Below, piece after piece: positions 1 through 54,782 of a DNA stretch of 64,000 nucleotides. The notes below the pieces were generated by a model, which saw only the letters and a list, made by a program, of their open reading frames with translations, did no database searches and was not told where the DNA came from. Each line of letters begins with the position of its first letter. The stretch's first letter is position 1. Source of the stretch: a virus (lineage: Duplodnaviria > Caudoviricetes); the IMG/VR virus record IMGVR_UViG_3300011008_002687, positions 47,270 through 111,269 of that record; one strand, given 5' to 3'. The translations under genes and the position numbers were made by a program.

Positions 1-514
1 AGATAAACTCTGCCACCCAACTGTCTGCGTCGGGGTTGCAGGTGGCTCTCACATATGGAGTAACACCGGAGTCTGTTCTATTTCGGGACAGCATATAAAA
101 AAACTGATGCTCCGTAAAGTGCGTCAGCTCGTCGAAACCGATCATTGCTATCTGTGAACCTTGCCATGATTCGCAATCATCGTCATTATTCAGATGTGCG
201 AAATTGACCGTAGCGCCTTTTGTGAAACACCAATGTAGTTTAGGTGTCTTTAGCGGATAGGCACCTTGCACGTAGCTGTAAACTTTTCTTGCACTATCCC
301 ATAAACCACCGGGGGCGGTTATCTGAGTGTACTCCTTTCGGAATATTACCGCATTGAAGTTTGAATTGTTCATGTGCCGCATTGGTTCCAGGAGTAAGCC
401 GTAGGTCTTTCCTCCACCTGCCGCTCCTCCATAAATACAAATATCTGCAGGAGTAGCCAGGAACCTTTCCTGTGGTCCTTTCTGTGGTGCCAGGATAATC
501 TTATTCTTCGCCAT
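1..514 (-). CDS. terL: Terminase large subunit, N-terminal part (runs off window)
   Basis: Translated by hand from ATG 514: MAKNKIILAPQKGPQERFLATPADICIYGGAAGGGKT (Walker A) ... IGFDELTHF (Walker B) ... RATCNPD. Confidence 0.9.
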   Translation of the reverse strand, partial: MAKNKIILAPQKGPQERFLATPADICIYGGAAGGGKTYGLLLEPMRHMNNSNFNAVIFRKEYTQITAPGGLWDSARKVYSYVQGAYPLKTPKLHWCFTKGATVNFAHLNNDDDCESWQGSQIAMIGFDELTHFTEHQFFYMLSRNRTDSGVTPYVRATCNPDADSWVAEFI

Positions 515-971
515 CGTTATCCCTCCCATTATCCGGAAGATAAATCTGCACTTCCGTATCATCACTGCCACTGTCCGGAAGTTCCATAGGACGGTCTTGC
601 CAACGGTCACGCTGTCTGTTTTTAAGCCAAAAGCACATAGCACCGACATCTGGAGGAACGTGCTTTTTCGTGTTCTCAACTCTGACAGGTTTTACACTTC
701 CGTCTTTGTCATACTCCACGATTTTCTTCTCTTCCACGTAATCATAACCCGTAGCTCTCTCATAGAGACTGCGGATCACCTTCGCATCTGATACGCCTTT
801 TCCCTTTGACAATGCCTCCGCAAATGTCGGATGATCTTTCTTCCAACGGCCTATGGTTCGTTTCGATACACCCATTGCTTCGGCTATCTCTTCCTCGGTG
901 GCACCCATAGCGGCCAAAGACCACGCCCAATCATCATGGTAGTCGGCATTGTACTTTGGTTGTGCCGCCAT
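501..971 (-). CDS. terS: Terminase small subunit (HTH)
   Basis: N-terminal HTH (EEIAEAMGVSKRTIGRWK), PPDVGAMCFWLKNR motif, directly upstream of TerL. Confidence 0.8.
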   Translation of the reverse strand: MAAQPKYNADYHDDWAWSLAAMGATEEEIAEAMGVSKRTIGRWKKDHPTFAEALSKGKGVSDAKVIRSLYERATGYDYVEEKKIVEYDKDGSVKPVRVENTKKHVPPDVGAMCFWLKNRQRDRWQDRPMELPDSGSDDTEVQIYLPDNGRDNDGEE

Positions 972-977
972 ACGCTA

Positions 978-1904
978 TTAACTCCCGGCTATATAGTCAG
1001 CGCAAAGGTACTCAATAAGCTGCCACCGGTTTTTGCTTGTTATGGTGCCTTCTTTCTCCGCTTTCTTGATTGCCTGCTGTATTACCTTAGCCGCCTCGCC
1101 TGGTACTGCGTTGCTGCCAAAGAGCTTTGTCAAGTAGGTCCAATCCTCTTCCTCATTGTACCCTGCGTCGTCCATCTTCTCGTTGACCGACTGCACCATA
1201 GAGTGAACTGCTGCTCCGACATTTCGGATGTCCGTAAATTTCTGATACTTCGCAAGTGCCTCTACGAACTCCTGGCACTGATCGTATGCCGCTACTCCGA
1301 TGATGTCCGGAGAAGTGATTTCCAGGTTCTTCACAAGTGCATCCATATCTTTGACCTGGTGCGGCAGAAACGAAAAGGTCACATTCTTAAAATCAAAAGA
1401 AACCGCAGGGCTGAGCATTTTGTCATACTCAGATAGCGGCTCTTCCAATATGTCCTTGCCTATGAAACTCTCGATCATATCATCAACATCGGTTATCATC
1501 TTCACGATTTCCCGGAGCGTCGAATCATCATCGAATCCGGAGATCGCATTGTGTGCCAACTGCTTTGCGGCAATTTGACTTCGAGATAACCCGCTTTCAT
1601 CCACAAGAGCGATAATCTCTTTCAAACCCGCCGCCCTTGCGCTTTTTATTCGGTGGTGGCCGGATATGATCTCGATTACTCCGTCCACATTCACCAGGAG
1701 AGGCAGGCTTTCAAGCTGTCCTCTCTTCGCTATGTTGGCCGTCAACTGATCCTGCATCTCATTCTTCATAATGCGGGCGTTGATGTCCTGCTCTTTCAAT
1801 TTGTCAATGGGTACCTTCGCTATTACTAAGCCGGAACCCATATCATAAATCACTTCGTAGTTTTTGCTCTGCTCTCCTGCCATTTGATTTCCCTCCTTAG
1901 CCAT
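978..1904 (-). CDS. ParB/Srx-like N-terminal domain protein
   Basis: NAR...LTANI...PLL...IISGHHRIKSA...HN motif pattern; probable start MAGEQ near 1883. Confidence 0.75.
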   Translation of the reverse strand: MAKEGNQMAGEQSKNYEVIYDMGSGLVIAKVPIDKLKEQDINARIMKNEMQDQLTANIAKRGQLESLPLLVNVDGVIEIISGHHRIKSARAAGLKEIIALVDESGLSRSQIAAKQLAHNAISGFDDDSTLREIVKMITDVDDMIESFIGKDILEEPLSEYDKMLSPAVSFDFKNVTFSFLPHQVKDMDALVKNLEITSPDIIGVAAYDQCQEFVEALAKYQKFTDIRNVGAAVHSMVQSVNEKMDDAGYNEEEDWTYLTKLFGSNAVPGEAAKVIQQAIKKAEKEGTITSKNRWQLIEYLCADYIAGS

Positions 1905-3250
1905 TCAATCATTGTCTGATGTTCGTTTCTTCCCTCAACCAGTTCAGCCTCATATGTCAGCTTATAGCCGTTCTGCTTATCCTCTGCCCTATTTACCAGT
2001 TTCATGATGCCCCGTACCTCTTTGTTTTCCGGGTACTTGGTAAGCATAGCAGTCCGCATTTTTACGACCTTTTCCCGGTCTATGGTGTCAAGGAGCGTAT
2101 CAACAAAGCCTCTGTTCTGTGCAAGCATATAGCATAACCGCCCCAAGCGGTATTTCTCGTGTGGTACCTTCATCACATACCACACAAATACGGAATCAGC
2201 CGCCATCTTCGATATGCCGAAAACTCCGGCCACATATCCGTCTATCAGCAACGCCCTGTTCCAAGTAGCTGAGGAACCGACAAAGTTATGCGTCCATAGC
2301 ACTCTGTAATACTGGGCTGTTGCCGCCTTAATCGGTATGATCTGCACCTTGCTTTCCTCGGTTATCACATGGTCCCTGGGTAGCATACTGCAGTCAAGCG
2401 GTTCCAGTTTACTCTCTGCAGGACGCTTGATCTTCTTTCCATTCGCAAGGGCCGTTGCCTCTTCCTCCCGGTTCGTAGTGATGTAAGCATTGAGGTCTGC
2501 CCTGGTACCGGACCGGGCGTATATCGTATAGCCTACTGCCTCGCCTACTTTCTTTTCCTGGTAGCAAAGCACCAATGCCTTTGCGTCCATGCACATATCA
2601 TAGAACTGCTTATGTCCTGTCTCCGGATCAAACAACTGGTACTCCGGTTCCTTCCAGGTCATTTTCCCCTGGGTGTCGTAGAACTTCTCATATCCGGAGA
2701 AGTATGTCGGCGGATTCGCTATCACGATAGCGTGGGGATCATCCAGTACCTCTTCCAAGTGTTTCCACATATCAAGCGGTCTGTAACTCATGCCATGCAG
2801 GAGATTTCTCACAACCTCAATCTGCCGATTGATGCTCTCAATATGTTCTGCTCTTCGCTCTCTGAGGTCAACAAGCATATTGTGAAAATACTCGTTGCCC
2901 GCACTCTTCGATGTTCTGAGGTACAACTGTGCGTACAATGCCGTTGCAGGATCAAGCAGCTCTTCATCACTAAAGCCTTGTGCATGAATTTCCAAAGGCT
3001 CCAATGACTGCCCTGTTATCGCATACCCAAGCACCGTAGGCATCATAGACACATCACTCGTCTCGATCTGCTCCGGCTTAAATCCATTCTGCACTGCAAG
3101 ATTGCTCATTGCGAATGTTCCGGCACAAGGCTCAACGAACCTCGTATAGCCCGACTTCGCTGCTGTCTCAATCAATTTCACGAGAAAACGCTGCTCGGAT
3201 GTTCCCAGGCACCCAAGAAACATTGCTCCCGGATTCATAAAAAATGCCAT
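1850..3250 (-). CDS. Adenine DNA methyltransferase-like domain fused to a probable Mom-like/GNAT C-terminal domain
   Basis: FVEPCAGT (SAM-binding motif I) and IANPPTY (motif IV-like); C-terminal IPIKAATAQYYRVLWTH...LLIDGYVAGVFG resembles the start of Mom-family proteins. Confidence 0.6.
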   Translation of the reverse strand: MAFFMNPGAMFLGCLGTSEQRFLVKLIETAAKSGYTRFVEPCAGTFAMSNLAVQNGFKPEQIETSDVSMMPTVLGYAITGQSLEPLEIHAQGFSDEELLDPATALYAQLYLRTSKSAGNEYFHNMLVDLRERRAEHIESINRQIEVVRNLLHGMSYRPLDMWKHLEEVLDDPHAIVIANPPTYFSGYEKFYDTQGKMTWKEPEYQLFDPETGHKQFYDMCMDAKALVLCYQEKKVGEAVGYTIYARSGTRADLNAYITTNREEEATALANGKKIKRPAESKLEPLDCSMLPRDHVITEESKVQIIPIKAATAQYYRVLWTHNFVGSSATWNRALLIDGYVAGVFGISKMAADSVFVWYVMKVPHEKYRLGRLCYMLAQNRGFVDTLLDTIDREKVVKMRTAMLTKYPENKEVRGIMKLVNRAEDKQNGYKLTYEAELVEGRNEHQTMIEWLRREIKWQESRAKTTK

Positions 3251-3288
3251 TGCCCTCTGTCACTCCTTTCTTTTTGTTCAAAATATAC

Positions 3289-3344
3289 AAAAAGCTGAGG
3301 TCAGCCAAAGTATCAACCCCGTAATTTTTGATACCCACCTCAGC
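3289..3344 (-). terminator. Long hairpin with U-tract upstream of the MTase-fusion gene
   Basis: GCTGAGGT...GTATCAA-N11-TTGATAC...ACCTCAGC-TTTTT on minus strand. Confidence 0.55.
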
Positions 3345-3353
3345 ACATTGCAC

Positions 3354-3387
3354 AAAAAAGGCACCGTACCCTGCCGGATGCGATGCC
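3354..3387 (-). terminator. Intrinsic terminator just downstream of the tRNA-like gene
   Basis: GGCATCGCATCC-GGCA-GGGTACGGTGCC followed by TTTTTT. Confidence 0.7.
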
Positions 3388-3395
3388 GTTGTTTT

Positions 3396-3467
3396 TGGAC
3401 CGGAACCCCACAATGAAGTGGAATCTCTCTGATGGAATCAGAACGTGCTACTTTACACCAGTTCCGG
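3396..3467 (-). tRNA. Atypical tRNA-Gly (anticodon TCC), CCA encoded
   Basis: Cloverleaf folded by hand: acceptor CCGGAAC/GTTCCGG, D arm GTGT-AAAGTA-GCAC, anticodon arm TTCTG-ATTCCAT-CAGAG, T arm TCCAC-TTCATT-GTGGG, discriminator T, CCA end. D loop lacks GG and T loop is 6 nt. Confidence 0.75.
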
Positions 3468-3472
3468 ATATA

Positions 3473-3988
3473 TTAAATCCCTGCCCCTACCAAATCGAAG
3501 ATGCTCATTTGCTTTGCCTCTTCCTGTGCAGGTTTCTTATTGTCAACCTTACTCTCTGCCTTTTTCTCCGCAGGCTTAGGTTTCTTTACCTTCGGCTCCG
3601 ACGGATCGGGCAGCTCTTCAATCAACTCGCCTGTGTTCTCAGCCCACCATTCTGCGAATACCGTTCTGTGACACCAATCTTCCGGGATTCTCACATCCTC
3701 ATAACAGAGCAGGACTAACTCTTTTCCTTCGTCCTGGGCTTTCTTATCGAGCCTCTCGACCATGTTTATGATCTTCTCTGTGCCGATGTCCTCTAACTTT
3801 CCGTAGTATGCAGGCTTGAAATCTTCAAGGCTCATGTTCAGCATATATCCCTTCGGTGCCAGGGAGAAACACTGCTCTCTCAGCTCGTAGCCAAGCGGCC
3901 ACTTTGGTTTCCCTATACTGATCCCTACCGGATAATACTTACCACTCTGCAATTCTTTGTTGCTGTACCGACTAACCCAAATAGCCAT
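3473..3988 (-). CDS. DUF488-like protein
   Basis: LAP...Y...LVLLCYE...WCHR motif pattern; AAGGAG RBS. Confidence 0.6.
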   Translation of the reverse strand: MAIWVSRYSNKELQSGKYYPVGISIGKPKWPLGYELREQCFSLAPKGYMLNMSLEDFKPAYYGKLEDIGTEKIINMVERLDKKAQDEGKELVLLCYEDVRIPEDWCHRTVFAEWWAENTGELIEELPDPSEPKVKKPKPAEKKAESKVDNKKPAQEEAKQMSIFDLVGAGI

Positions 3989-4025: not shown

Positions 4026-4034
4026 ATTATACCA
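4026..4034. other. Probable att core (left junction), which is also an extended -10 element TGGTATAAT on the minus strand
   Basis: ATTATACCA also at 50009..50017 after the integrase and its terminator. Confidence 0.65.
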
Positions 4035-4129
4035 CAATTTTTCCCGTTCTTAAAGTCTGCAATATGCTGAATTTTCGCCATTTGTTCAGTATTTCAGACG
4101 GCAGAAAACGATATAAAACGGTGGTATTT

Positions 4130-4164: not shown

Positions 4165-5049
4165 TCAGACCTTCTTCAGGTACAGACTGGACGTGAAACC
4201 AGTGTACTTGGTGCCGTTGTAGGTCACCTGAATGTACAGCCACTTTCGGCCATTGGACTTGTCCACACTGTAGTAGCCGTAGTTCATGACCTTCAGACCA
4301 ACAGGCAGGACAACCATGGCCTTGTTTCCGGTACCGGCACCGTGCCGCATATAAACGGCAGCAGTGGTGACGTACTGTCCGGCCAGCTTCTTGTCAAAGC
4401 CCGTGGCATAGCCGGTTGCCCTGACTTCCTTCACCTTGCCGCTGGTGCTTCCGGATCCTGAACCGGATCCGCTGCCGGAACCAGTTCCGGAACCGCTGCT
4501 GGATCCACCAGCCTTGGCACCATCATCAAGTGCCATGACGGTATGACCGGAACTGACAAGCACGTCACCACGCTTCAGGTAGTCAGAAGATCCGGTGTAC
4601 TTCTTATCCGTCAGGATTTCATACTTGCCGGTCTTCTGATAGGCATTCTTCATGGTGCTGCACACCAGGGCATTTCCGGTATATTCCAGTTCCTTGACAC
4701 CGGCCAGGATAGCCAGCACGGTCTGGAAAGAACTGCAATCCGCTTCCGTGGCCACCTTGGACTTGATGTACTTGTCCACGTCATAGCCGTTTGCCTTCAG
4801 CTGATCATGCAGCGTGTTCCGCTGGGACTGGTCATAGCCTACCAGGTTGCTGTTGCACAGCTTTTCACATGCAGCGGCAGACTTTTCTGCCACAGCCGGA
4901 TCCTTCGGTCTAATGACAACCAGCCAGTCCTTGTTGTACCAGTAGGAAATCTTCACTTCAAGGCCGGTCTGGTCACCAGCCTTGGCACGTCCGTCCCATC
5001 CGGCATTGCCGTTTTCAGAAATGGACGCATGTCCGATTCTCACAGCCAT
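4165..5049 (-). CDS. Endolysin (NlpC/P60-CHAP-like catalytic domain, Gly/Ser linker, SH3b-like C-terminus)
   Basis: DCSS and GHT catalytic motifs, GSGSGSGS linker, last gene of late operon after holins. Confidence 0.8.
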   Translation of the reverse strand: MAVRIGHASISENGNAGWDGRAKAGDQTGLEVKISYWYNKDWLVVIRPKDPAVAEKSAAACEKLCNSNLVGYDQSQRNTLHDQLKANGYDVDKYIKSKVATEADCSSFQTVLAILAGVKELEYTGNALVCSTMKNAYQKTGKYEILTDKKYTGSSDYLKRGDVLVSSGHTVMALDDGAKAGGSSSGSGTGSGSGSGSGSGSTSGKVKEVRATGYATGFDKKLAGQYVTTAAVYMRHGAGTGNKAMVVLPVGLKVMNYGYYSVDKSNGRKWLYIQVTYNGTKYTGFTSSLYLKKV

Positions 5050-5059
5050 TGTGTTCACC

Positions 5060-5365
5060 TCACTTCTTTTCAAAATAAGCCATCAGCTTGTCAAAGCCGA
5101 ACATTGCAGCATAGGCCACCATGATGCCCACAATGACGAATGCAGCAACCAGATACCATGTCAGCATCATGCCATTCATCTGCCAGTAGGCAATGAACAC
5201 ACCCACCGTCAGAACAATGGACAGGCACAGCACAAAGATGTTGATCACCTTGGACGTACTAAGCCAGCTGAAGGATTTCTTCATCACTTCAGTGATGATG
5301 TTGACAAAAATGGTCAGAATTCCGACAATGATCAGAACCTGACTGATGATAGTTGAATAGTCCAT
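5060..5365 (-). CDS. Holin (3 predicted TM segments)
   Basis: Small hydrophobic protein directly upstream of endolysin. Confidence 0.7.
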   Translation of the reverse strand: MDYSTIISQVLIIVGILTIFVNIITEVMKKSFSWLSTSKVINIFVLCLSIVLTVGVFIAYWQMNGMMLTWYLVAAFVIVGIMVAYAAMFGFDKLMAYFEKK

Positions 5366-6242: not shown

Positions 6243-6512
6243 TTACACCGTCAGAAGTCCGTAGACTTCCACCAGGCCTTCCTGGGTGTCCAGGATCTGA
6301 CTTTCAAGATCAGCCTGCTTGTCAGACTGCATCTTGATGTATTCATCCTTGTCATACTGCACCAGGTCATATTCATAACCGGTGAAGCCAGGTTCATCAT
6401 CCGTGCCTTCGGTGTTGATTGCCGTCACGTTGCTGGCAATCCAAACACTGAATTCATCCACCACAAGGGGTTCAGGCTGCACGGTTGCCTGTACACGTCC
6501 ATGATTGATCAT
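6243..6512 (-). CDS. Tail-fibre-associated small protein
   Basis: Likely start MINHG after AAGG RBS; overlaps 3' end of RT. Confidence 0.55.
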   Translation of the reverse strand: MINHGRVQATVQPEPLVVDEFSVWIASNVTAINTEGTDDEPGFTGYEYDLVQYDKDEYIKMQSDKQADLESQILDTQEGLVEVYGLLTV

Positions 6513-7662
6513 TTTCCTTACTTCCTTTCTTGATGTGTTTGAAATAGTATGCATCAGCGTATGGCTGAAGCGGATCCAGATACTTTTCAGTCAGACGGTG
6601 ACTGTCACAGTGGATCAGCCAGCCCTTATAGGAAGCAATGCTGCACCACTCTGAATAGTTCATTTCCTTGCCGGATTCCACCTTCTTCAGCAATCTGGTC
6701 ATCTTGTCCTTCATCTGATTGCAAGTGGACTTTCTAAGAAGGGTGTATTCCTTGAAGATCCGGTATCCAACAAAATCCACACCACGCTGATACGTGGGGA
6801 AGATCTGATAATTCCCTTTGATCCTCAAATTCAGTTCAGACTTCAGGTAGTCACCCATAGCTGCCAGGATCCTGTGAAGTTCTTCCTTGGTACTGGCAAA
6901 CACACAGATGTCATCCATGTATCTGTAGTAGTGCTTCACGTGAAGCACTTCCTTCATGAAGTGATCAAAGTCCGACAGGTAGAAGTTGCCGTCATATTGT
7001 GAAAAGTAGTTGCCTATGGGAATGCCAATACCATCAATGAACTGTTCATCCTTTCGCTGAACAATGGCAACGGTCTTTCCCAGTGACCTGTAAAACGCTA
7101 TGTTTTCATCCGTGGCCGGACAGGTGCTGATACTGTCAATGATTTCATCAATGACCTGAAGCAGTTCAGGATCCTTGTATTTCTTCCGGTACTTTGCCTT
7201 CAGGATGTCATGGTCAATGCTTGGATAGAACTTCTGACAGTCAATCTTGCAGCAGAACCGCAATTCATCAGGCACGGTGTCCACAGCGTTCCGAAGTTTC
7301 TTGAAGGCTGCATGTATTCCTTTATTTGGTATGGCTGAATAGGTATCATCCGTAAAGTGTGCCAACAGCTGTGGTTCAATCACCTGAATGATTGCCCATT
7401 GTGCTATCCTGTCAGGGAAGAACGGCAGCTTGTAGATTTCACGGACTTTGTTTCCCTCTTTCCGAAGGAACATTTCATAGCTGGAAGTGTGATAATCATG
7501 GTTGATCATCATTTCCTGAAGCAGCCCTAAGTAGTACCAGATATTCTTTTCAATTTCCCTTACTTCTTGATACCAGCCTTTTCCTTTCTTGGCATTCTTA
7601 TATGCCCGGTACAGATTGTCCATTGAAACAATCTTTTCAAATAAATAACCATAACGCTTCAC
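6472..7662 (-). CDS. DGR reverse transcriptase
   Basis: KxR-I, PFFPDRIAQ, KIDCQKFYPSI, GIPIGNYFSQ, RYMDD, DFVGY motifs; likely GTG start 7662 (VKRYGYLFEKI) after AAAGGA; adjacent to TR. Confidence 0.95.
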   Translation of the reverse strand: MKRYGYLFEKIVSMDNLYRAYKNAKKGKGWYQEVREIEKNIWYYLGLLQEMMINHDYHTSSYEMFLRKEGNKVREIYKLPFFPDRIAQWAIIQVIEPQLLAHFTDDTYSAIPNKGIHAAFKKLRNAVDTVPDELRFCCKIDCQKFYPSIDHDILKAKYRKKYKDPELLQVIDEIIDSISTCPATDENIAFYRSLGKTVAIVQRKDEQFIDGIGIPIGNYFSQYDGNFYLSDFDHFMKEVLHVKHYYRYMDDICVFASTKEELHRILAAMGDYLKSELNLRIKGNYQIFPTYQRGVDFVGYRIFKEYTLLRKSTCNQMKDKMTRLLKKVESGKEMNYSEWCSIASYKGWLIHCDSHRLTEKYLDPLQPYADAYYFKHIKKGSKENDQSWTCTGNRAA

Positions 7663-7872
7663 AGTGTTTCCTTTGTATGCACTAAGCCGAACCTTCGACA
7701 CGCACCGGAACCGGTGCATCCTACCAGTACAGCCTGTTTAGAATTTTGTCAGTGTTTTGCCAAGCGGCACGGTGACACGGTTGCAGTTCAAACTGGATGC
7801 AGAACACGCTGCATCACTTATTTATTGAAACACCCACCCGGTGTTGACCGGATGGGTGCTTTTTAGTGCATG

Positions 7873-8005
7873 TACTGACTGCCTGGAGATATTCCGATTA
7901 CGATTAGAAGACGAATTATTCAGATTCCGATTGAAGATCCTGGCTTTCAAGGCATTATTCCATTTACCACTGGATTTAGCTACATGCCAACTGGTGTTAC
8001 CATTT
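7873..8005 (-). repeat. DGR template repeat (TR)
   Basis: 133-bp ungapped match to 8153..8285; all 25 mismatches are at TR adenines (coding strand). Confidence 0.97.
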
Positions 8006-8113
8006 AGACTTTTTTGCTTTTTTCCAGTAGCCATGTGTGGTCTTCCACCTATCTTGCAAATAATCCGACTGTATAACCACGTCACCTATAGTTCTATGTT
8101 TCAGGCTATTGCC

Positions 8114-9949
8114 TTACGCAGCGTCAAGTTCCGCCTTCCTGCTGGGAATGAACACCGACCGCCCGGAGACATTCCGACCACGATAAGAAGACGAATAATG
8201 CAGATTCCGATAGAAGATCCCGGCCGCCAAGGCATTAGTCCACATACCACCGGATATAGCCACAAGCCAACCGGCGTTACCATTCCAGGTGTAATCACCA
8301 ACAGGCAGGGCACTGGTGCCGGAGAATTCCACACCAACAAAGATCCAGTCATAGTCTTCACTATAACCAAAAGCGCTGATGTAGTTGCCGCTGGTGTACG
8401 GAATACGGATGCCGGTGTCTTCATAGGGTGTAGCACCGGTGTCATCAGTAAAGCCGTGATCAGCCACATAAACAGTGCCGAACATGCCAGCCGCAAAACC
8501 GGAAGGATTCTGGATGTTGAAGCCGTCTTCCCACTTCCAGATGTTGCCCAACAGGTTTTCCTCACCACGATAGGACACAGCCTTCTGATGGTTGGCATTC
8601 TCTGCTTCACCGGAAGCGTTGCCAAGGTTCACCGTGGCACCGGTCAGTTCAGCCATGTTGGTGCTGCCGTCATCGGTCTTGTCCACAATGCCCTTGCCAA
8701 TGACGGTCTGACTGTTGAAGCTGCCGTACTCAATCAGCATCAGCAGCTGGGTACCGGCCAGCATGACAGCGTTCTGCTGTTCCCAGCCGTTGCCCATGTT
8801 GTGTGCCAGCTTTCTGGTGTTCGCCCTGGTCAGATTCTGTGTCAGGCCGGAAATGGGCTTGGCATTGGCAATGGAAGCCAGCTTGTCACCCGTGCTGACC
8901 GTGAAGTCAGCAACCTGATCATCATCCAAGATGTAGGCAGAAGCAGACACGTCATACAGGCAGCCTTCAAAGGCAGACTTGTAGATGAAGTCATCAACGG
9001 TTTTCCCCTCATTCATAGTGAACTGGGGATGGATCTTGAAGCCCTTCTTCGGCACGTCAGACACGTAGTATCTGATCTTCTTGGTCTTCCAGCCCTGGCT
9101 GACACCGTTGGCATCAAAGACTTCTTCAATGGACAGCGGCACAACCTTGTAGTAGAACTTCGGCTGTTCCACCATGACCTGAACCATGGTGCCGATAGGA
9201 TAGGTGACACCGCCTTTTTCCACGGCCTGAAGCAGTGCACCACCGGTGGTGTATGCAGTGTCACCCTGGTATGCCAGGACAACACCGTCAGCCGTCATGA
9301 TGCAGCGCTTTCTGCCGCCGAAGGCATTGATGCTGTCAAAACCAGCACCACCGGACTTGTTGACTGCACCGGCCAGACGGGTGAACTTCTTGTTGGCAAA
9401 GTCCACTTCAACACCATAGATGTCATTGTCAGAATATCCGACAAAACCCTTCAGGTCAGCAATTTCATCTTCCAGGGCATCAATGTCTTCAACCGTTGCA
9501 TAGGCACCGGAATAGACGCTGATGTCCACATCATCAGAATTGCCAACCGTGGTGTAGATCTGAATATAGGCAGAAGACACGGTGACACCTTTGTATGCAG
9601 GCATGTAGCAGAAACCGGAAGTTTCCACACACACGGCATACAGGATTTCACCAATGTCAGGATCCGTGGCATACAGGCCAAGGGAACGGAGATAGTACCC
9701 GGCAGCCAGTGCTTCATTGGTGAAGGCCGTTTCAACCTTCACAGAAGTGTGATTGGTGATGGTCACCCTGGTCACGCTGTTGGTCTGCTTGATCTGTTCC
9801 AGTGCAGTCAGACTTTCCAGCTGACTTTCTGCATAGGTCTTGGAAGACGTGCAGACCTTAGTGAAGACCAGGCTTGCCTGACCAGCAATGATCTTGGCAA
9901 CAAGTGCCTGACCTCTTGTGGTCAAATAAAGTTTGCTAAATTCAGCCAT
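8114..9949 (-). CDS. Tail fibre / receptor-binding protein, DGR target (C-terminal CLec/FGE-like domain)
   Basis: Tail-collar-like N-terminus; GNIWKWEDG and SGGxW...GRSV C-terminus containing VR; follows baseplate genes. Confidence 0.9.
   Translation of the reverse strand: MAEFSKLYLTTRGQALVAKIIAGQASLVFTKVCTSSKTYAESQLESLTALEQIKQTNSVTRVTITNHTSVKVETAFTNEALAAGYYLRSLGLYATDPDIGEILYAVCVETSGFCYMPAYKGVTVSSAYIQIYTTVGNSDDVDISVYSGAYATVEDIDALEDEIADLKGFVGYSDNDIYGVEVDFANKKFTRLAGAVNKSGGAGFDSINAFGGRKRCIMTADGVVLAYQGDTAYTTGGALLQAVEKGGVTYPIGTMVQVMVEQPKFYYKVVPLSIEEVFDANGVSQGWKTKKIRYYVSDVPKKGFKIHPQFTMNEGKTVDDFIYKSAFEGCLYDVSASAYILDDDQVADFTVSTGDKLASIANAKPISGLTQNLTRANTRKLAHNMGNGWEQQNAVMLAGTQLLMLIEYGSFNSQTVIGKGIVDKTDDGSTNMAELTGATVNLGNASGEAENANHQKAVSYRGEENLLGNIWKWEDGFNIQNPSGFAAGMFGTVYVADHGFTDDTGATPYEDTGIRIPYTSGNYISAFGYSEDYDWIFVGVEFSGTSALPVGDYTWNGNAGWLVAISGGMWTNALAAGIFYRNLHYSSSYRGRNVSGRSVFIPSRKAELDAA
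8153..8285 (-). repeat. DGR variable repeat (VR) at 3' end of tail-fibre gene
   Basis: A-to-N-only differences from TR. Confidence 0.97.
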
Positions 9950-27794: not shown

Positions 27795-29072
27795 CTACTT
27801 CATGACGGATAACCCTGAAGGCTTCCGGATTATTGTGTATGCAAAGTATCTGCTGCTGTCCATGGCATGGTCAAATTTCTTGACCGGCTTGTCTTCACCA
27901 CGTTCAGCGGCCTTTTCATCCCAAACATAGGATGCAAATTCCTGAATGGTCATTTTGCAGTCTGAACTGAACTTCACTGAACCGTTCAGCAGCAGTGAAG
28001 CAAGGAACCGGATACCGTCAAGCACGTCATTCCTGGCCTTCTTGATGCTGTACCCACGTTTCTTCAGTTCCGCAATAAAAGAAGCAGCTGACGGATCCAC
28101 CACTATTTTCTGTGGTTTGATGCCGTCCAGCCACTTCTGAAGGTCATTGGCATATTCAGTATCAGTTTTCTGCTGTTCAGTGTCCCTGCCGGAATAGTAG
28201 TATTCACGGCAGCAGTACCATTTCTTGTCCTGGCCTTGTCCCCACAGAAGGAATACCGTGGCATTCTGTGTGCCGTAGTCACAGGACACGTGCCAGGTGT
28301 TTGGAATGATTGCCGGTATCTGATCAGGCTGCACCACGTGCTTGGCCGGATCAAACATGTCATAGATCAGACCTTCAGCCATCACCCACAGACCAAGGAT
28401 GTACCGCTTGAAGAACACACCACGGTACATGTTCCTGTACCGTTCCTTGATCTTTTCGGACAGTGACAGGTTGTCATCCATGGTGAAGTGCAGGTATATG
28501 ACGTTCTTTTCCTTGCGCTGGTCAATCCATTCCTGCTTGAACCAGTGATATGGTGATCCAGGGTTGCAGTTGAACCAATACTTGGATCCGTCCACGGAAC
28601 AGCGACCTGTGGCCTGTTCCACAAAGGACTTCGGCATCAGTGCCACTTCATCAAAGAATGCACCTGCTGCCGTAATACCCTGAACCAGATCCTGTGAACC
28701 TTCATCCTTGCCGCCGAAGATGTAAAATTCATTGGTGATCTTCCCACGGTGGATCACCAGCACATTGTCAGTCCTTCGGTCTTCAAACGTATAGCCACGG
28801 CTTGTCAGCATCTGCTTCAGCGGCTTAATGACGTTTCTTCGGCAGGATCCCACGGTCTTGCCTGCAATGATGAAGTTTTCCCCATTGAACGTGGACATTG
28901 CCCACATCACGTAGGACAGGGACATGCAGACGGTCTTGCCGGATCTGATAGCACCGTCTGCTATAATGCCATCATAATCCTTGACGGGGGATGAAAGACA
29001 CCACCAGTTCAGGATCTGACGCTGTTTCCTGCTGAATGGTTTGAACTTGAATGAACTAATCTTCATAGTCAT
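27795..29072 (-). CDS. terL: Terminase large subunit (PBSX family)
   Basis: DGAIRSGKT, FFDEVA, NCNP, DYG, VDPSA, DHAMD. Confidence 0.95.
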   Translation of the reverse strand: MTMKISSFKFKPFSRKQRQILNWWCLSSPVKDYDGIIADGAIRSGKTVCMSLSYVMWAMSTFNGENFIIAGKTVGSCRRNVIKPLKQMLTSRGYTFEDRRTDNVLVIHRGKITNEFYIFGGKDEGSQDLVQGITAAGAFFDEVALMPKSFVEQATGRCSVDGSKYWFNCNPGSPYHWFKQEWIDQRKEKNVIYLHFTMDDNLSLSEKIKERYRNMYRGVFFKRYILGLWVMAEGLIYDMFDPAKHVVQPDQIPAIIPNTWHVSCDYGTQNATVFLLWGQGQDKKWYCCREYYYSGRDTEQQKTDTEYANDLQKWLDGIKPQKIVVDPSAASFIAELKKRGYSIKKARNDVLDGIRFLASLLLNGSVKFSSDCKMTIQEFASYVWDEKAAERGEDKPVKKFDHAMDSSRYFAYTIIRKPSGLSVMK

Positions 29073-31565: not shown

Positions 31566-31797
31566 TCTCCATAGTCATGGTGAAGGTGCCGTCACCGTTG
31601 TCATTCATCTTTGCCTTTCCAGACAGAATCAGTGGATAATAAGAAACTACAACCACTATCTTTCTGTGAATCAGCAGTTTCAGAATGCCCTTCCAGCCAA
31701 GTTTGATGGTTGCCCTATCCAGGTTCCGTTTTGTGTTTCTCTGTGCCTTGACCACAATGACCGGCACGGCCATGATTTTAGTCCACCACTTTTTCAT
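31528..31797 (-). CDS. Hypothetical protein
   Basis: In-operon overlapping ORF. Confidence 0.45.
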   Translation of the reverse strand: MKKWWTKIMAVPVIVVKAQRNTKRNLDRATIKLGWKGILKLLIHRKIVVVVSYYPLILSGKAKMNDNGDGTFTMTMENENYEQGSKEER

Positions 31798-33682
31798 CTT
31801 CTTTCCACCTTACAAAAATTTTGATGACCTTACCATTGATCTTCCTGCATTTCACTTCAAAGTTCAGCCGTTTGTTCACCTGTTTACTGAACACAATGTT
31901 GGACATGGGTGTCAGGGCATTGTCTGCACAGAAGACCTGATAACGCTTGTACACTTCGGCTGTGGGCTGGTTTTCAATCATTTCCACACCCTGGTCTTCA
32001 ATGAATGCAGCAATGGGATTGTTTTCTTCCTCATAGTCCCTGATTTCTTTTTCCACCTTTTCAGACTTGGTGAACTTATTGTGGGCAATGACACGCTTCA
32101 GGCCTTCAATGCCGATCCGGATCAGGTATTCCACTGATTCCTGTTCACACAGCCTGTACTTGATGAACGGATCATAGTCAGGATCCTGGTCACTGAAGGT
32201 TGCATTGAAGGGAATAATGACCAAGCGCCGAAGAACGGCACCTGTCTTGTCCTTCATCCTGGGGATGTCATTGGCAGAGAACAGCATCTTGATGTACGGA
32301 TTAAATTCAAACGGTGTCAGGCCTTTGTATTCACCCTTGATCCGGTTGCCGGTGACAATCTTCTTGAATATGGCCACCTGACTGCCCTGAAGGAAGTCAT
32401 CACCAATGTCATCACCAATGTTGGCCATCTTGCCAAACATCATGGCAGTGTTGAAACGGTCACCAAGTTCCTTCAGATCCAACGCTGATATGTTCTGTTC
32501 ACCCAGTATGGCCTTGACCACTTCCAGGAAGGTTGACTTGCCGTTGGACTTATCCCCGGTCAGAATGAATGCCTTTCCAAGTTCATTCCTTCTGAAGAAA
32601 CAGTATCCAATGCATTCTTCCAGCAGCGCACGGATGGAAGCATCATCACAGGCCAGCTTGTTCAGCGTTTTATCTGCCAGTTCATTGACGGCATCCGGAT
32701 TGTAGTTCCACGGTATTTTGTTGGTGATCACGTATTCAGGATTGAACGGAAGCAAGTGATCATCAACAATGTCATATATGCCATTCTGGAAGGCAATGAA
32801 TCTGGCATCTGCCGGTTGAAGCTGTTCTGCAATCAGTTCCATGTAGTCCAGGACTTCACGGCGCTGTGTCTTCTTCAGGTTTGGGATCAGCTCTATCATG
32901 CTGTGTTCAATCTGCCTGTAGCCTGGTGCATAGGTGCCATCCTGATAGATGTGCAGCTGGCCATTGATGTTCACCACGTGGTTATTGCTGACCATGTAAT
33001 GGGCAAATCTATCAAACAGGAAGCTGGCACCAATGAAGAACACCGGCTTCTGAAACGCTTCATCCCTTAGAATGACTTCCAGTTCATCATCCGGCAGCGG
33101 TTCATGCAGCACAAAGCGATTCAGGATCCGGATGCATTCCCGGCATTCGTCCACGCTGTAGTCACTGCCCTGAAGTGTCAGGATGTAGTTGAACAGTGCC
33201 TGATTCCTTCCGTCACCAGCTGACATGTCAAGAAAGTCTGCCGAAGATCTGACCGGTGTCAGCCATTTTGGAAGTTCCTGATATTCCACACCCGGTTCCA
33301 CGTCCCATTCCACAAAACGGTCTTGACCGTCTATCCTGATGACTTCCGTGGACAGCTTGGATCCAACCTTGATGTCTGCCGTCAGGCCTATTCCAAGTGG
33401 CACGTGTGTCCGGTTCCTTGTTACCTGGTGGTTCTTGAACAGAAAGTGCTTTCCCCTGGTTGTGCAGATCACCTTGCAGTTCAGCTGCCGATCTTCCACG
33501 ATCTTCATCAGAATTTCAGCCTGATCCCCATCATCAATGTCAATCAGGATGACATCATCAGCCAGAACACCTGCATAGCCATTGCAGTCCTTCACTTCAG
33601 CAAGGGTTTTCCAGGTCTTCCTGTTCTTCAGTTGTTCAATGGGGCGCTTGCCCTTGGTTTCCACATAACCCTTGTAAAGCAC
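31778..33682 (-). CDS. Primase-helicase (prim-pol plus D5/P4-type SF3 helicase)
   Basis: IDID, TTRGKH, GRN, GDKSNGKST, SANDIP. Confidence 0.88.
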   Translation of the reverse strand: MLYKGYVETKGKRPIEQLKNRKTWKTLAEVKDCNGYAGVLADDVILIDIDDGDQAEILMKIVEDRQLNCKVICTTRGKHFLFKNHQVTRNRTHVPLGIGLTADIKVGSKLSTEVIRIDGQDRFVEWDVEPGVEYQELPKWLTPVRSSADFLDMSAGDGRNQALFNYILTLQGSDYSVDECRECIRILNRFVLHEPLPDDELEVILRDEAFQKPVFFIGASFLFDRFAHYMVSNNHVVNINGQLHIYQDGTYAPGYRQIEHSMIELIPNLKKTQRREVLDYMELIAEQLQPADARFIAFQNGIYDIVDDHLLPFNPEYVITNKIPWNYNPDAVNELADKTLNKLACDDASIRALLEECIGYCFFRRNELGKAFILTGDKSNGKSTFLEVVKAILGEQNISALDLKELGDRFNTAMMFGKMANIGDDIGDDFLQGSQVAIFKKIVTGNRIKGEYKGLTPFEFNPYIKMLFSANDIPRMKDKTGAVLRRLVIIPFNATFSDQDPDYDPFIKYRLCEQESVEYLIRIGIEGLKRVIAHNKFTKSEKVEKEIRDYEEENNPIAAFIEDQGVEMIENQPTAEVYKRYQVFCADNALTPMSNIVFSKQVNKRLNFEVKCRKINGKVIKIFVRWKEDEKVVD

Positions 33683-40571: not shown

Positions 40572-41907
40572 CTGTCAGTTCCTTTCCAACCTTCAGCATC
40601 TGAAGGTTTCTTTCCTCTATGGATCCAGACACCAGCAGATAGTAGTAAAAGCACGTTCTGTCCTGACCTATCCGGTGGATCCGTTTCTTTGACTGTTCCC
40701 ACAGGTCACAGCTGCCTTTTCCAAGCGGAAGGGTGAAGTATATGATCCTGTTGGCCTTCTGGAAGTTGCCGCCCATGGCACCAGCCTGGTACTGAATGAA
40801 GGTGATGGAATCGCTGCATTTCTCATAGGCCATCAGATCCTTTGTGGATCCATTCAGCACTGAATACGGTCTTTCCAGTTCATTCAGATGGTTCTTCATC
40901 TGCCGCAATTCCTCATTGAAATTGTAGAAGATGATGATCCGGTCTTCCGTGGACTGTACCAAGTCCCGAAGGGCTTGCAGCTTTTCCTTGTGATACTGAC
41001 CACACAGCTGTCTGGCATGAAGGATCTTTGTCAGTTGGTTGTCACCAATCAGTTCAATGCAGTCACCTTCATTGGTTCCATAGAAATCAGAATCCAGTTG
41101 AAATTCATTCAGACTTGCCTTGCTGATCTGCACGTATCCGGTTTTCATAAACTGGACATAGGTCTTGGTCTTTCTGACCTTGACCACTTGTTCAATCTGT
41201 TCAGGCAAGTTCATCACTTCTGAAGTCTTCATGAACACTGCACCGTACTGTGCCAGCCGTTTCTTCAGGTGTGGCACGTTTTTATAACCGGTGATGACTT
41301 CCTGCATGAATCCGTCACTGTTTTCCACCCATTCCGTGTCAACATAGGATTTCCAGAAGGCCTGTTTGGTGATGTTCCATCCAAGCAACTTCAGCTGTGA
41401 CCACAGCTTTTCATATTTTCCTGCCGTTGGTGTTCCGGACAGAAGGATCACTGCTGCCGGATCCAGCTTCAGGATGAACTTTGACCTTTTGGCATTCTCA
41501 TTGCTGATCAGGGAAGATTCATCCAGCATCAGGGTGAAGCCGTGCATCTTCAGGTAGGCTGACCGTCTGAAGATCAGGTCATAGTTGATGATGCCAACAA
41601 TCATGTCATCATCCTTGATGCCTGCCTGCTGAAGATTCTTGAAGTTGATGGAAGAAGTCTTCTTTGTCAGGTCAAACACCCTGATGTCCGGATAGTAGGT
41701 CTGAAAGTGCTGGATCCAGTCATCAATCTTGGATTTCTGACAGACCACAATGTTCACAGGCCTGTTCAGTTCCCACATCTTTTCAGATCCAACAAAGGTC
41801 TTGCCAAGTCCCATGTCCAGATAGTAGGCCACTCGGATAAAGTCTTCAGTGATTTCAAGCACCTTGTTTTGGTGGGGCATCAGTACCAGATCAGGCATTG
41901 ATGTCAA
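40549..41907 (-). CDS. SNF2-family helicase
   Basis: DMGLGKT, LDES, SGTP, RIHRIGQ. Confidence 0.88.
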   Translation of the reverse strand: MTSMPDLVLMPHQNKVLEITEDFIRVAYYLDMGLGKTFVGSEKMWELNRPVNIVVCQKSKIDDWIQHFQTYYPDIRVFDLTKKTSSINFKNLQQAGIKDDDMIVGIINYDLIFRRSAYLKMHGFTLMLDESSLISNENAKRSKFILKLDPAAVILLSGTPTAGKYEKLWSQLKLLGWNITKQAFWKSYVDTEWVENSDGFMQEVITGYKNVPHLKKRLAQYGAVFMKTSEVMNLPEQIEQVVKVRKTKTYVQFMKTGYVQISKASLNEFQLDSDFYGTNEGDCIELIGDNQLTKILHARQLCGQYHKEKLQALRDLVQSTEDRIIIFYNFNEELRQMKNHLNELERPYSVLNGSTKDLMAYEKCSDSITFIQYQAGAMGGNFQKANRIIYFTLPLGKGSCDLWEQSKKRIHRIGQDRTCFYYYLLVSGSIEERNLQMLKVGKELTDELFENP

Positions 41908-42658
41908 TTCCAGTGCATTCCTTGAAGATCACGGGATCAAAGTTAGGCAAGGCAAGGATGATGTCCCTGTATTCCTGGCACAGTCCGTCCCACCAAAGCT
42001 GTGCACAGTCACTTTCATCCAGTACCTTCAGATAACCACCCGTTGTCTTATATTCCGGATACTGCTGCTTTTCTTCATCCGTCATGTCACAGGCATATAC
42101 CCATTCCACAACATTCTTCGGAATCTGGTTCAGCAGATGGTATGCCTTGCTGTTCCACCAGTCACGCAGCGTCCAGTCAGACGGTTTGTTGAACATGGTG
42201 ATCTTCGGTTCAATCGTCATGAAACATCCGTTATTGAAAGAAGATTTGTTCCAGTCCCCGGTGTTCCAGTCCCCGGTGTTGCAGTCCCCGGTGTTCCTGT
42301 TCCCGGTGTTCCTGTTCCCGGTGTTCCTGTTCCCGGTGTTCCTGTTCCCGGTGTTCCTGTTCCCGGTGTTGCAGCCTTTCTGGACTTCATCCCAGGACAG
42401 TTCACGGATGATCAGCAGCTTGTTGGTGCAGAACTTGATGTCATCATCAGTCTTCACGTCACCAATGGCTTCCACTTCGGCCACAACCGTCTGATCAGGA
42501 TCAAAGGTGTAGAAGTTGAACACGTCCGGCAGCCGTTCACAGAAACGCATTCCGGATTCACACGGGATCAGCTGCACATCTTCTTCAAAGGTTTCACCAA
42601 CCTTGTACTGCTTGCCACGGCAAGTCCAGTCTTTATTAAATGCCTTGAATCCTTTCAT
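41891..42658 (-). CDS. Phage protein with NTG(N/D)x pentapeptide repeats
   Basis: KGFK.F...CRG.QY..G N-terminus and 8 pentapeptides. Confidence 0.7.
   Translation of the reverse strand: MKGFKAFNKDWTCRGKQYKVGETFEEDVQLIPCESGMRFCERLPDVFNFYTFDPDQTVVAEVEAIGDVKTDDDIKFCTNKLLIIRELSWDEVQKGCNTGNRNTGNRNTGNRNTGNRNTGNRNTGDCNTGDWNTGDWNKSSFNNGCFMTIEPKITMFNKPSDWTLRDWWNSKAYHLLNQIPKNVVEWVYACDMTDEEKQQYPEYKTTGGYLKVLDESDCAQLWWDGLCQEYRDIILALPNFDPVIFKECTGIDINA
42251..42370. repeat. 8 x 15-bp coding tandem repeat (5 identical CCTGTTCCCGGTGTT)
   Basis: Read directly. Confidence 0.95.
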
Positions 42659-48898: not shown

Positions 48899-49921
48899 AT
48901 GTCTATGGGAAGAAGGAATCCAAACGGCTATGGCTGTGTGACAAAGCTGTCCGGCCATAGAACCAGACCATGGGTGGTGAAGGTGACCATCTATGATGAA
49001 GAAGGCAAGGCCAAGCAAACACCTGTGGCCTATGCAGCCACGGAACAGGAAGCCATGATCCTGCTGGCCAAGTACAACAATAATCCGTGGGAAGTGGACA
49101 GGGAAACCATCACCCTGGCTTCACTCTATCAGCGCTGGTCAAAGATCAAGCTGCCGAAGCTGGGGATCAGCACACAGCAGTCATTGAAGTCAGCCTTCAG
49201 GCACTGTTCCAAGTATTACGGCACCAAGTACCGGCAGATCAAGTCCTATCAGATGCAGGATACCATTGACAACTGTGGCAAGGGATATTCCACCCAGGGC
49301 GCAATCAAGGCACTGTGGGGACACCTTGACCGGTTTGCCTTTGAACTGGACATCATTGACAAGATGTACAGCCAGCTGACATCAGCTGCACCAATTCCTG
49401 AAACCACCAGGGAACCATTCACCCAGGAACAGATAGATGACCTGTGGAAGATCTCTGATCAGCCATATGTGAACACCGTGCTGATTTATCTGTACACCGG
49501 CTTCAGACTGACTGAACTTCTAACCATGAAGGCTGAACAGGTGAACATGGATGAACTGTACTTCCAAGGTGGGATCAAGACGGCATCAGGCAAAGGCAGA
49601 ATTGTTCCCATCCATCACAGGATCCAACCATTTGTGAAGGATCTGGTCAGCACCGGCAGCACGTACCTGTTCACCTATGACGGGAAGAAGATCAGCAATG
49701 CAAAATACTATGAACTGTGGAACACCGTGATGCAGGCCATTGGTGCAGACAAGACACCGCATGAAGCCAGACACACATTTGAAACCAGGCTGGATAATGC
49801 CAACGGCAACCGGAAGTGTATTGACATGCTGATGGGACATAAGTCAAAAGACGTGGGAAACAGGGTGTATAATCACAAAACCGTGAACCAGCTGAAGGAA
49901 ACCATTGAACTGTTGCAGTAA
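48899..49921 (+). CDS. int: Tyrosine integrase (inner prophage)
   Basis: YTGFR..E, K, HEARHT, MGH, VYNH. Confidence 0.95.
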   Translation: MSMGRRNPNGYGCVTKLSGHRTRPWVVKVTIYDEEGKAKQTPVAYAATEQEAMILLAKYNNNPWEVDRETITLASLYQRWSKIKLPKLGISTQQSLKSAFRHCSKYYGTKYRQIKSYQMQDTIDNCGKGYSTQGAIKALWGHLDRFAFELDIIDKMYSQLTSAAPIPETTREPFTQEQIDDLWKISDQPYVNTVLIYLYTGFRLTELLTMKAEQVNMDELYFQGGIKTASGKGRIVPIHHRIQPFVKDLVSTGSTYLFTYDGKKISNAKYYELWNTVMQAIGADKTPHEARHTFETRLDNANGNRKCIDMLMGHKSKDVGNRVYNHKTVNQLKETIELLQ

Positions 49922-53702: not shown

Positions 53703-54782
53703 TCAGTTTTCAGTATTCAGTTTGCAGTAATAAGCGGAGCGGAAACCGATGTAGCCGTACGAGTACGACCGGGCAATGTTGAGGTACACGTTGAACACGC
53801 CCGCACGGGCGGCAGAGTTCCAGTAGCCCCCGCAAATCGGCAAACGCTCGCCTTCTGTATCTGCGTACAGATAAGCCTCCGGCTCTCCCGGATATAACGC
53901 AAGTTCTTTCATCTGCTCCGTAATCTCAATATCCATCACCGCATCCTGCCACTCGCAACCGTCATAATCTGCCTGGATGTCCTCGTCCGTTGTGAATCTC
54001 ACACATCCGTCGGTACAATCCAGTCTGATGATCTTTCCGTCGTTTGTCAGTAGCGGTTTCCACTTGTCGCTGTTCTCCGATAAATCAATATCCATGGCTG
54101 CATCGTTGTTCTCCGGTGCCTGCAGGACTCCGTTCATAAGACGCAAGCCTCTGAACCATTCATATATGTTTCCGCAAAGGTCGGACACTCCAAATACCGT
54201 ATAGTCATGATTCCATGTTGCCGGACCGGTTCCGGTCAGCGTCCTTCCGTACTCGTATGTCTCACCTTGCTCCTCCTCGTCTCCATGCCACTTACCGTAA
54301 TTCGTATTTCCATGAGGCAGGGTGTCATTCTTCTTGCAGATGTTCGCAAGCAGACCTCTCTCCATTGCCGTCCAAAGATGCCACCCCTCGCCTTTTGAAA
54401 AGCAGGCTTTCTCTGCCTCTGTATATGTCACACTTGTTGCCGGTTTCTGATATGGCAGACTGTACGCCTTCCCGTTTATGATCGTATTCGGGTACTTGCT
54501 GATGTAGATTTCATCATAAACCTGGTCGCCGATGATGAAGGCAGGAAACACCTTGTCTGAACCTCCGAACAGCTCCTTATCCGTCACCCTCGAAAACCGA
54601 ACCATGATTGACGGAATCCCTGCCTTATCGAATACCACAACATTATCTGCCCTTATCGGCTCGTACTCCGGTGCAGGCTTAAAGCATACGCACCTGCCCT
54701 CTGCATTGATTACAAGCTGAGGAATCTGACACACTCCCTTGCAATCCTTACTCTTACAGTTCCTTTCGCATTTAACACTCAT
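53703..54782 (-). CDS. FGE/CLec-fold protein with VR-like C-terminus
   Basis: DLCGNIYEW, GGYW...AGVF...GFRSA. Confidence 0.75.
   Translation of the reverse strand: MSVKCERNCKSKDCKGVCQIPQLVINAEGRCVCFKPAPEYEPIRADNVVVFDKAGIPSIMVRFSRVTDKELFGGSDKVFPAFIIGDQVYDEIYISKYPNTIINGKAYSLPYQKPATSVTYTEAEKACFSKGEGWHLWTAMERGLLANICKKNDTLPHGNTNYGKWHGDEEEQGETYEYGRTLTGTGPATWNHDYTVFGVSDLCGNIYEWFRGLRLMNGVLQAPENNDAAMDIDLSENSDKWKPLLTNDGKIIRLDCTDGCVRFTTDEDIQADYDGCEWQDAVMDIEITEQMKELALYPGEPEAYLYADTEGERLPICGGYWNSAARAGVFNVYLNIARSYSYGYIGFRSAYYCKLNTEN

Follow-up and report, generated by a model that had tools for sequence, protein, structure and literature searches.

Genes and features of the locus

The window analyzed here is a 64,000-nt stretch (positions 47,270 to 111,269) of the 111-kb virus record of a gut phage, IMG/VR IMGVR_UViG_3300011008_002687 (Duplodnaviria; Caudoviricetes). 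Near its left end, on the minus strand, are found in order a DUF488-like gene, a tRNA-Gly-like element, a gene for a 466-amino acid (aa) protein in which a Dam-like domain is fused to a GNAT domain, a ParB-like gene, and the genes for the small and large terminase subunits, terS and terL (Table 1); head and tail genes lie to the left of the window, past terL. The original prediction, made from the sequence alone, had read the same order at 978-3988, directly upstream of terS and terL, and all of its coordinates hold. The pairing of the tRNA with the fusion enzyme, which proves to be conserved well beyond this phage, is the main subject of this report.

Table 1. Features at the left end of the window, in order of transcription.
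Feature	Position	Strand	Basis or remark
Sigma70-like promoter, extended -10 (TG-N-TATAAT)	4026..4053	-	10/12 match; 2 sites against 1.6 expected by chance, weak by itself
DUF488-N3a-like protein, 171 aa, C..E...CHR motif	3473..3988	-	DUF488-N3a, E = 7.5e-4, below cut-off
Atypical tRNA-Gly(UCC), encoded CCA	3396..3467	-	ARAGORN -ps95, fold, relatives
Hairpin and U-run directly 3' of the tRNA, terminator-like	3352..3391	-	z -3.65
Second hairpin and U-run, ahead of the ribosome-binding site of the enzyme gene	3285..3345	-	z -3.9
Fusion enzyme, 466 aa, with EPCAG and NPPTY	1850..3250	-	Pfam PF22555 and PF22559
ParB/Srx-like protein, SGHHR box intact	978..1904	-	First codons overlap the 3' end of the enzyme gene
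terS, terminase small subunit	501..971	-	PHROG 309, E = 7.5e-46
terL start, Walker A GGAAGGGKT	1..514, off the left end of the window	-	Read from the sequence; family recurs after terS

An atypical tRNA-Gly

Neither ARAGORN at its default settings nor Rfam detects the tRNA; a relaxed threshold (-ps95) and a custom model were needed. At -ps95, ARAGORN calls a tRNA-Gly(TCC) at 3396-3467, its sole tRNA call in the 111-kb contig. The element is 72 nt long, folds as a cloverleaf (z -2.8), and has its 3' end 146 nt before the start codon of the enzyme gene. Canonical tRNA-Gly features are present at the anticodon (C35 and C36) and along the acceptor end (C2-G71, G3-C70, U73, and the encoded CCA), but others are missing: the first pair is C1-G72 instead of G1-C72, there is no G18G19, and a 6-nt T-loop closed by C53-G61 replaces GTTCRA, that is, the TTCRA loop closed by G53-C61. 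Position 32 is A. The tRNA-Gly(TCC)-like cloverleaf of the original prediction is confirmed by the ARAGORN call, the fold, and its conservation: all 88 loci of the same clade with at least 400 nt of upstream sequence carry the tRNA and its stems covary, so that it is not due to chance. The stem of the hairpin directly 3' of it (3352-3391) is likewise kept in relatives, while the loop changes.

The 88 loci yield 69 distinct tRNA sequences. C35 and C36 never vary among these (apart from one row that a shift caused to be mis-parsed), and 68 of them have U73. Position 34 may be U, C, A, or G; 17 sequences lack U33, 31 have a pyrimidine at position 37, and none contains GTTCRA. The table of these sequences presupposes CCG/CGG ends, whose invariance in it is by construction; an unbiased count is given below for a set of 45. 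There is selection on the positions read by synthetases and none on those read by ribosomes, a pattern also seen in the non-proteogenic tRNA-Gly of staphylococci (PMC7826273), and to judge by its sequence the tRNA is apparently non-translational and unfit for ribosomes. In 18 loci of the clade there are two or three tandem copies, which fits a donor that is consumed. Clusters of two to three private tRNA-Gly genes are found ~0.1-1.2 kb 5' of the enzyme gene in loci L131, L133, L163, and L122, and some of these are mixed with canonical-looking tRNA-Trp, -Leu, or -Ser.

tRNA types among homologs

Loci encoding homologs of the enzyme were fetched from viral, genome, and metagenome collections, 269 in all, and form 50 clusters at 85% identity, spanning Bacillota, Actinomycetota, Chloroflexota, Bacteroidota, Synergistota, and Acidobacteriota. 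ARAGORN finds a tRNA on the same strand, no more than 1.2 kb upstream, for 32 of the 50 cluster representatives by default and for 40 at -ps95; in controls, 240 kb of downstream sequence gave no tRNAs and 409 kb of opposite strand gave none or one. By sequence patterns and a covariance model, an upstream tRNA is found in 250 of the 256 loci with enough flanking sequence (a redundant set) and in 49 of the 50 clusters; four of the loci without a detected tRNA retain the 3' half of one, interrupted by an insertion. Because the covariance model (R1) derives from the representatives of the clusters, only its matches on other loci count as a test. A first regular expression for the acceptor stem had ~20% false positives in controls and was kept out of the statistics.

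The type of tRNA differs by clade. The window clade and mycobacteriophage Jeon have a Gly tRNA and the FP_Brigit clade has Lys(CUU); Arg tRNAs are mainly those of actinobacterial phages, and Pro and Glu tRNAs are found elsewhere. The Jeon enzyme has 24% identity, and an annotated tRNA-Gly(tcc) abuts its gene. Glycine as the amino acid of the system, as originally proposed, does not extend to the family, since most sampled clusters carry Lys, Arg, Pro, or Glu tRNAs. Across the types, the acceptor end is mostly CCG/CGG. In the unbiased count of 45 tRNAs, C2-G71 is found in all, C1-G72 in 44 (Jeon is the exception), and G3-C70 in 42; two-sided changes are found at 20 of the 21 stem pairs in the same set. 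Among 50 tRNAs read from a clostridial genome carrying the module, only two, both tRNA-Pro, start with CCG, and G is first in all four tRNA-Gly genes read. The identity elements track the anticodon. All 10 Gly tRNAs have U73, all 15 Lys and all 6 Pro tRNAs have A73, and all 13 Arg tRNAs have A20, in agreement with a table of bacterial synthetase identity elements (PMC9976931).

On a quick tree, the tRNA-type labels require eight changes, including an Arg tRNA within the Lys clade; the tree carries long-branch warnings and kin share labels, and no order of events is drawn from it. T-stem bulges or odd anticodon loops are found in many private tRNA copies, and several of the Arg type have 6-nt or insertion-bearing anticodon loops. 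Loci L188 (2546-2638), L146, L160, and L065 (293-385) have an extra hairpin, which sits in the anticodon loop in tRNAs of Arg type and in the D-loop in those that are probably of Pro type. In L090, L202, L205, and L245, ~160-220 nt upstream of the enzyme gene, the 5' part of the tRNA-Lys is swapped for foreign sequence, as if the private tRNA-Lys were the integration target of another element.

Ten distant homologs were left out of model building as an independent test set. A clear upstream tRNA is found for five: Gly in L306, L314, and L313 (in the last, 2.5 kb from the enzyme gene), Pro in L307, and Glu in L310. The distant Gly members L059, L306, L313, and L314 keep G1-C72, and therefore have all the known determinants for glycyl-tRNA synthetase (GlyRS). 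The pairing of tRNA and enzyme is strong but not universal: the predicted conservation of a tRNA upstream of homologs stands at the level of the clusters, but not for every distant homolog (see below).

Structure and conservation of the enzyme

The enzyme is a full member of two Pfam families, DAM-like-phage1 (PF22555; residues 11-281, E = 7e-72, 242 bits) and GNAT-phage-like (PF22559; residues 300-454, E = 2e-34, 119.5 bits), each with a cut-off of 27; the family numbers 819 representatives at 50% clustering. It was unmatched by PADLOC. An AlphaFold2 (AF2) model of the 466 aa, with a predicted local distance difference test (pLDDT) score of 94.6, has an alpha-class DNA amino-methyltransferase fold at residues ~9-281 and a GNAT fold at ~297-454. 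A single-sequence fold of the GNAT domain alone reached a pLDDT of 38.5 and was kept out of the fold searches. BFVD entry A0A8S5SJK3, a 695-aa phage protein named as an amidoligase, matches the whole two-domain model (E 2e-22, TM 0.58), which suggests that there may be variants of the enzyme with an added ligase domain.

The four best fold matches of the N-terminal domain, in alignments covering ~200 residues, are EcoDam (Z 13.2), M.CbeI (12.9), DpnM (12.7), and T4Dam (11.6). It shares with these the fold of residues 9-264, a Rossmann methyltransferase fold with motifs I and II, and the S-adenosylmethionine (SAM)-binding motif residues are conserved (G44 and D66, each in 98/100 homologs). Unlike the alpha-class methyltransferases, it has a fused GNAT, a tRNA partner, and a motif IV of NPPTY, with one extra residue, so that there is no conserved (D/N)PPY. 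Its first residue is poorly conserved: position 179 is N in 66/100 homologs and D in 3/100, and all seven Pro-type enzymes have C, M, A, or G in place of the Asn; position 182 is mostly T, S, A, or G. In homologs of ~620-790 aa (P0157, P0181), inteins directly follow NPPTYK. The adenine-methyltransferase motifs reported in the original prediction, EPCAG and NPPTY, are thus present, but this is not a canonical adenine methylase.

The C-terminal domain had been predicted to be Mom-like. It does have a GNAT fold, by both the AF2 model and fold searches, but Mom (PDB 8bv8; Z 10.6, root-mean-square deviation 3.3 over 137 residues) ties with generic GNATs (Z 11.1, 10.8, and 10.4), and membership in the Mom family by sequence is rejected (see below). 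A cluster listed in the Atlas as 21% Mom, at 0.85, is a lead only.

Acetyl-coenzyme A (CoA)-dependent GNATs, such as RimI and the TacT/AtaT toxins, have a pyrophosphate-binding loop of the form Q/R-x-x-G-x-G/A. The R-x-x-G-x-G CoA loop is absent here: across 100 homologs this stretch is PHxxxRLxRL, and none of its positions is a conserved glycine. The conserved residues are instead R368 (97/100), R371, T400, and R413, with position 370 mostly T, N, or G, and by R368, T400, and R413 the GNAT half is conserved as strongly as the methylase half. From the alignments and the model, the N-terminal domain may be read as a DNA-binding, base-flipping module, and the GNAT as probably using a donor other than CoA. 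There are hints of the amino acid at GNAT positions 359 (V/T in 10/12 Gly enzymes, G/A/S/C elsewhere) and 402 (Q/E in all Lys and Arg enzymes), but these are mostly clade effects, with counter-examples.

Possible function

Mom of phage Mu takes glycine from Gly-tRNA-Gly and attaches it to N6 of adenine in double-stranded DNA; a rearrangement follows, and all of the host isoacceptors can serve as donor (Silva et al. 2026, PMC13219725). The use of Gly-tRNA-Gly by Mom, stated in the original prediction, is thus borne out. With a probability of roughly 0.6, we propose that a DNA base receives the amino acid carried by the private tRNA, in the style of Mom, and that this serves as an anti-restriction measure. 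Aminoacyl transfer to a flipped base would be the simplest account of a Dam-like fold, a GNAT lacking the CoA loop, and a tRNA compatible with synthetases but not with ribosomes; DNA as the acceptor, the anti-restriction role, and a coupling to packaging are what we infer from this setting.

In such a scheme, transcription of the tRNA would start at the promoter 5' of the DUF488 gene, and the two terminator-like hairpins would make the tRNA more abundant than the enzyme mRNA. Host GlyRS would charge it via C35/C36, U73, C2-G71, and G3-C70, and the broken D/T elbow and T-arm would exclude it from EF-Tu and the ribosome, on the staphylococcal precedent discussed below. The Dam-like domain would bind double-stranded phage DNA and flip a base, most likely adenine; it could also be cytosine, because M.CbeI, an N4-cytosine enzyme, matches as well as Dam. 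The GNAT domain would then move the aminoacyl group from the 3' end of the tRNA to the exocyclic amine, glycine on adenine giving N6-carbamoylmethyl-adenine, as with Mom, or a related adduct. The resulting mark would block host restriction, with the ParB-like NTP-binding protein and the DUF488-N3a-like protein (3473-3988) as probable accessory factors in late expression and packaging. In other clades the amino acid would be Lys, Arg, Pro, or Glu, with the anticodon and identity elements exchanged on the shared acceptor end. The broader idea, that a single phage scaffold writes Gly, Lys, Arg, Pro, and Glu onto bases, as chosen by a reprogrammable, ribosome-excluded tRNA with a shared acceptor end, is more tentative, at somewhat under even odds.

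Several findings weigh against aminoacyl transfer to DNA. The C-terminal domain has no match to PF25680 (Mom) or to the Mu Mom sequence, and a profile comparison with Mu Mom gives a probability of 0.3%. The C1-G72 pair inverts G1-C72, a reported determinant for bacterial GlyRS (PMC9976931), and charging is not assured; Mom itself does without a private copy, using the ordinary tRNA-Gly of the host (PMC13219725). No GNAT position was found to predict the amino acid cleanly when independent lineages are compared. Among the ten distant homologs, the model finds no tRNA in three (L308, L311, L315), L312 has a weak Gly-like match, and in L309 a CCG-type tRNA lies beyond ParB, on the opposite strand; members without a tRNA could, by analogy with Mom, use that of the host. 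By our own chemical reasoning, proline in a Mom-type rearrangement leaves no N6-H for base pairing, and the product therefore cannot be identical in all clades.

The strongest of the alternatives, although an unlikely one, is that the tRNA works uncharged or as a target: as a structural or allosteric RNA cofactor, as a substrate of the GNAT or methylase, or as a decoy for host defenses that attack tRNA. This would fit the inverted GlyRS determinant, and the shared CCG/CGG end shows that the acceptor end is read by something besides a synthetase; aminoacyl-tRNA is also what GNAT toxins act on (PMC13219725). An uncharged cofactor, however, would not need the discriminator base and A20 to switch jointly with the anticodon, as synthetases require, nor would a decoy need a place beside this one gene across phyla; the CoA-binding loop of the acetylating toxins is missing, and the distant Gly members named above keep G1-C72. 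Next in order, and likewise unlikely, is an aminoacyl-tRNA donor with an acceptor other than a DNA base. The acceptor would then be a protein (ParB-like, terminase, or virion), a small molecule, or a DNA end that DUF488 processes. Peptides, proteins, or lipids are the targets of most known aminoacyl-tRNA-dependent GNATs (PMC13219725), motif IV is degenerate, and the Pro and Glu variants suit adenine chemistry less easily. Set against this are the fusion, in the homologs examined, of the GNAT to a Dam-like fold whose best matches over ~200 residues are DNA amino-methyltransferases, and the inteins right after NPPTY in some of them, which mark this loop as functionally critical.

The conserved SAM-binding motifs would also suit an orphan m6A or m4C methyltransferase of the ParB-terminase type, with the GNAT and tRNA doing something separate. 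ParB-terminase loci with DNA-modification enzymes, methylases among them, have been described (PMC4738411), and the enzyme has the same position beside ParB and terminase genes; furthermore, a SAM synthetase gene lies within 4 kb in 11 of the 50 cluster representatives, and also in FP_Brigit. The extra residue in motif IV, the replacement of its Asn in 34/100 homologs (and every Pro-type enzyme), and the equal conservation of the GNAT half make this explanation improbable, and it leaves the tRNA unexplained; methylation may occur in addition to aminoacyl transfer. An ordinary phage tRNA supplementing translation, or the relic of an integration site, is very improbable. GGA is the commonest Gly codon in the phage late genes (140/376), and insertions cut some of the Lys-type copies, but the T-loop, G18G19, U33, and R37 have been lost, the wobble base is free, there is no integrase beside the private tRNA at the locus, and the position next to the enzyme gene is fixed.

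Relation to described systems

The enzyme shares with Mom (PF25680) a GNAT fold, a late phage gene, and, in the function proposed here, DNA modification from Gly-tRNA-Gly. Mom is a stand-alone dimer with a DNA-binding insertion and uses any host tRNA-Gly (PMC13219725), whereas this GNAT is fused to a Dam-like fold and has a private tRNA whose type varies among clades. Our verdict is that the system is probably a variant of Mom-type chemistry and, by sequence, not a member of the Mom family. In staphylococci, a non-proteogenic tRNA-Gly serves the Fem transferases FmhB, FemA, and FemB (PMC7826273). It resembles the phage tRNA in being dedicated, with altered D and T arms, and in its GNAT-fold transferase, and it is kept from EF-Tu (PMC7826273), as the phage tRNA may also be. 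It differs in being chromosomal, in having peptidoglycan as acceptor, in keeping G1-C72, and in carrying glycine only.

The proteins of the module already have Pfam families and hence have been noticed before; Burroughs and Aravind 2023 is the probable source of these families. The enzyme sits in the neighborhood of PF22555 and PF22559 with DUF488-N3a (PF22751) and ParB: ParB is found 3' of the enzyme gene in 48 of the 50 cluster representatives, and a DUF488 homolog 5' of it in 40 of the 50 and in Jeon. No tested function or tRNA partner for PF22555 or PF22559 proteins was found in the searchable literature, two relevant papers being outside its reach, and Mom was the only tRNA-dependent DNA-modifying enzyme found described. 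The genome note for phage Taptic records a single tRNA-Gly and a ParB homolog, without linking them (PMC5356062).

If the proposal is correct, this would be a second tRNA-dependent DNA-modifying family, without detectable sequence relation to Mom, with its own donor tRNA and a diversified amino acid. It would imply a set of undescribed modified nucleosides, their identity readable from the tRNA gene, with new DNA bases predicted in gut, soil, and mycobacterial phages, and could account for the lone tRNA-Gly of cluster W mycobacteriophages (PMC5356062). The proposal is testable in the cultured phages Jeon, Taptic, and ValentiniPuff, the last a Microbacterium phage of the Arg type, and the system could conceivably serve as a tRNA-programmable tool for DNA labeling.

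Other features of the window

The host phage is interrupted, within the TGGTATAAT -10 element of the operon, by the insertion of a second prophage of ~46 kb (window ~4040-50010). The promoter -10 is the crossover point, and the -35 now comes from the insert; a relative, L178, runs uninterrupted across the insertion site. Genes of the inserted prophage include an endolysin (4165-5073), terL (27795-29072), a primase (31778-33682), and an integrase (48899-49921). It also has a reverse transcriptase-like ORF (6472-7719), an Rfam RT-17 match (7673-7774), and a pair of 131-nt repeats with 82% identity (7874-8004 and 8154-8284); window 6472-8284 looks like a diversity-generating retroelement of the inserted phage. 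The tail region of the host phage has a reverse transcriptase-like ORF as well (contig C1, 20389-21528), and a 115-nt repeat is found there at C1 21783-21897 and 22447-22561 and again at window 53733-53847, so that this is possibly a second retroelement with a remote target. An ORF at 41891-42658 contains a 15-nt tandem repeat (42217-42396) with Pro-Gly-Thr-rich coding.

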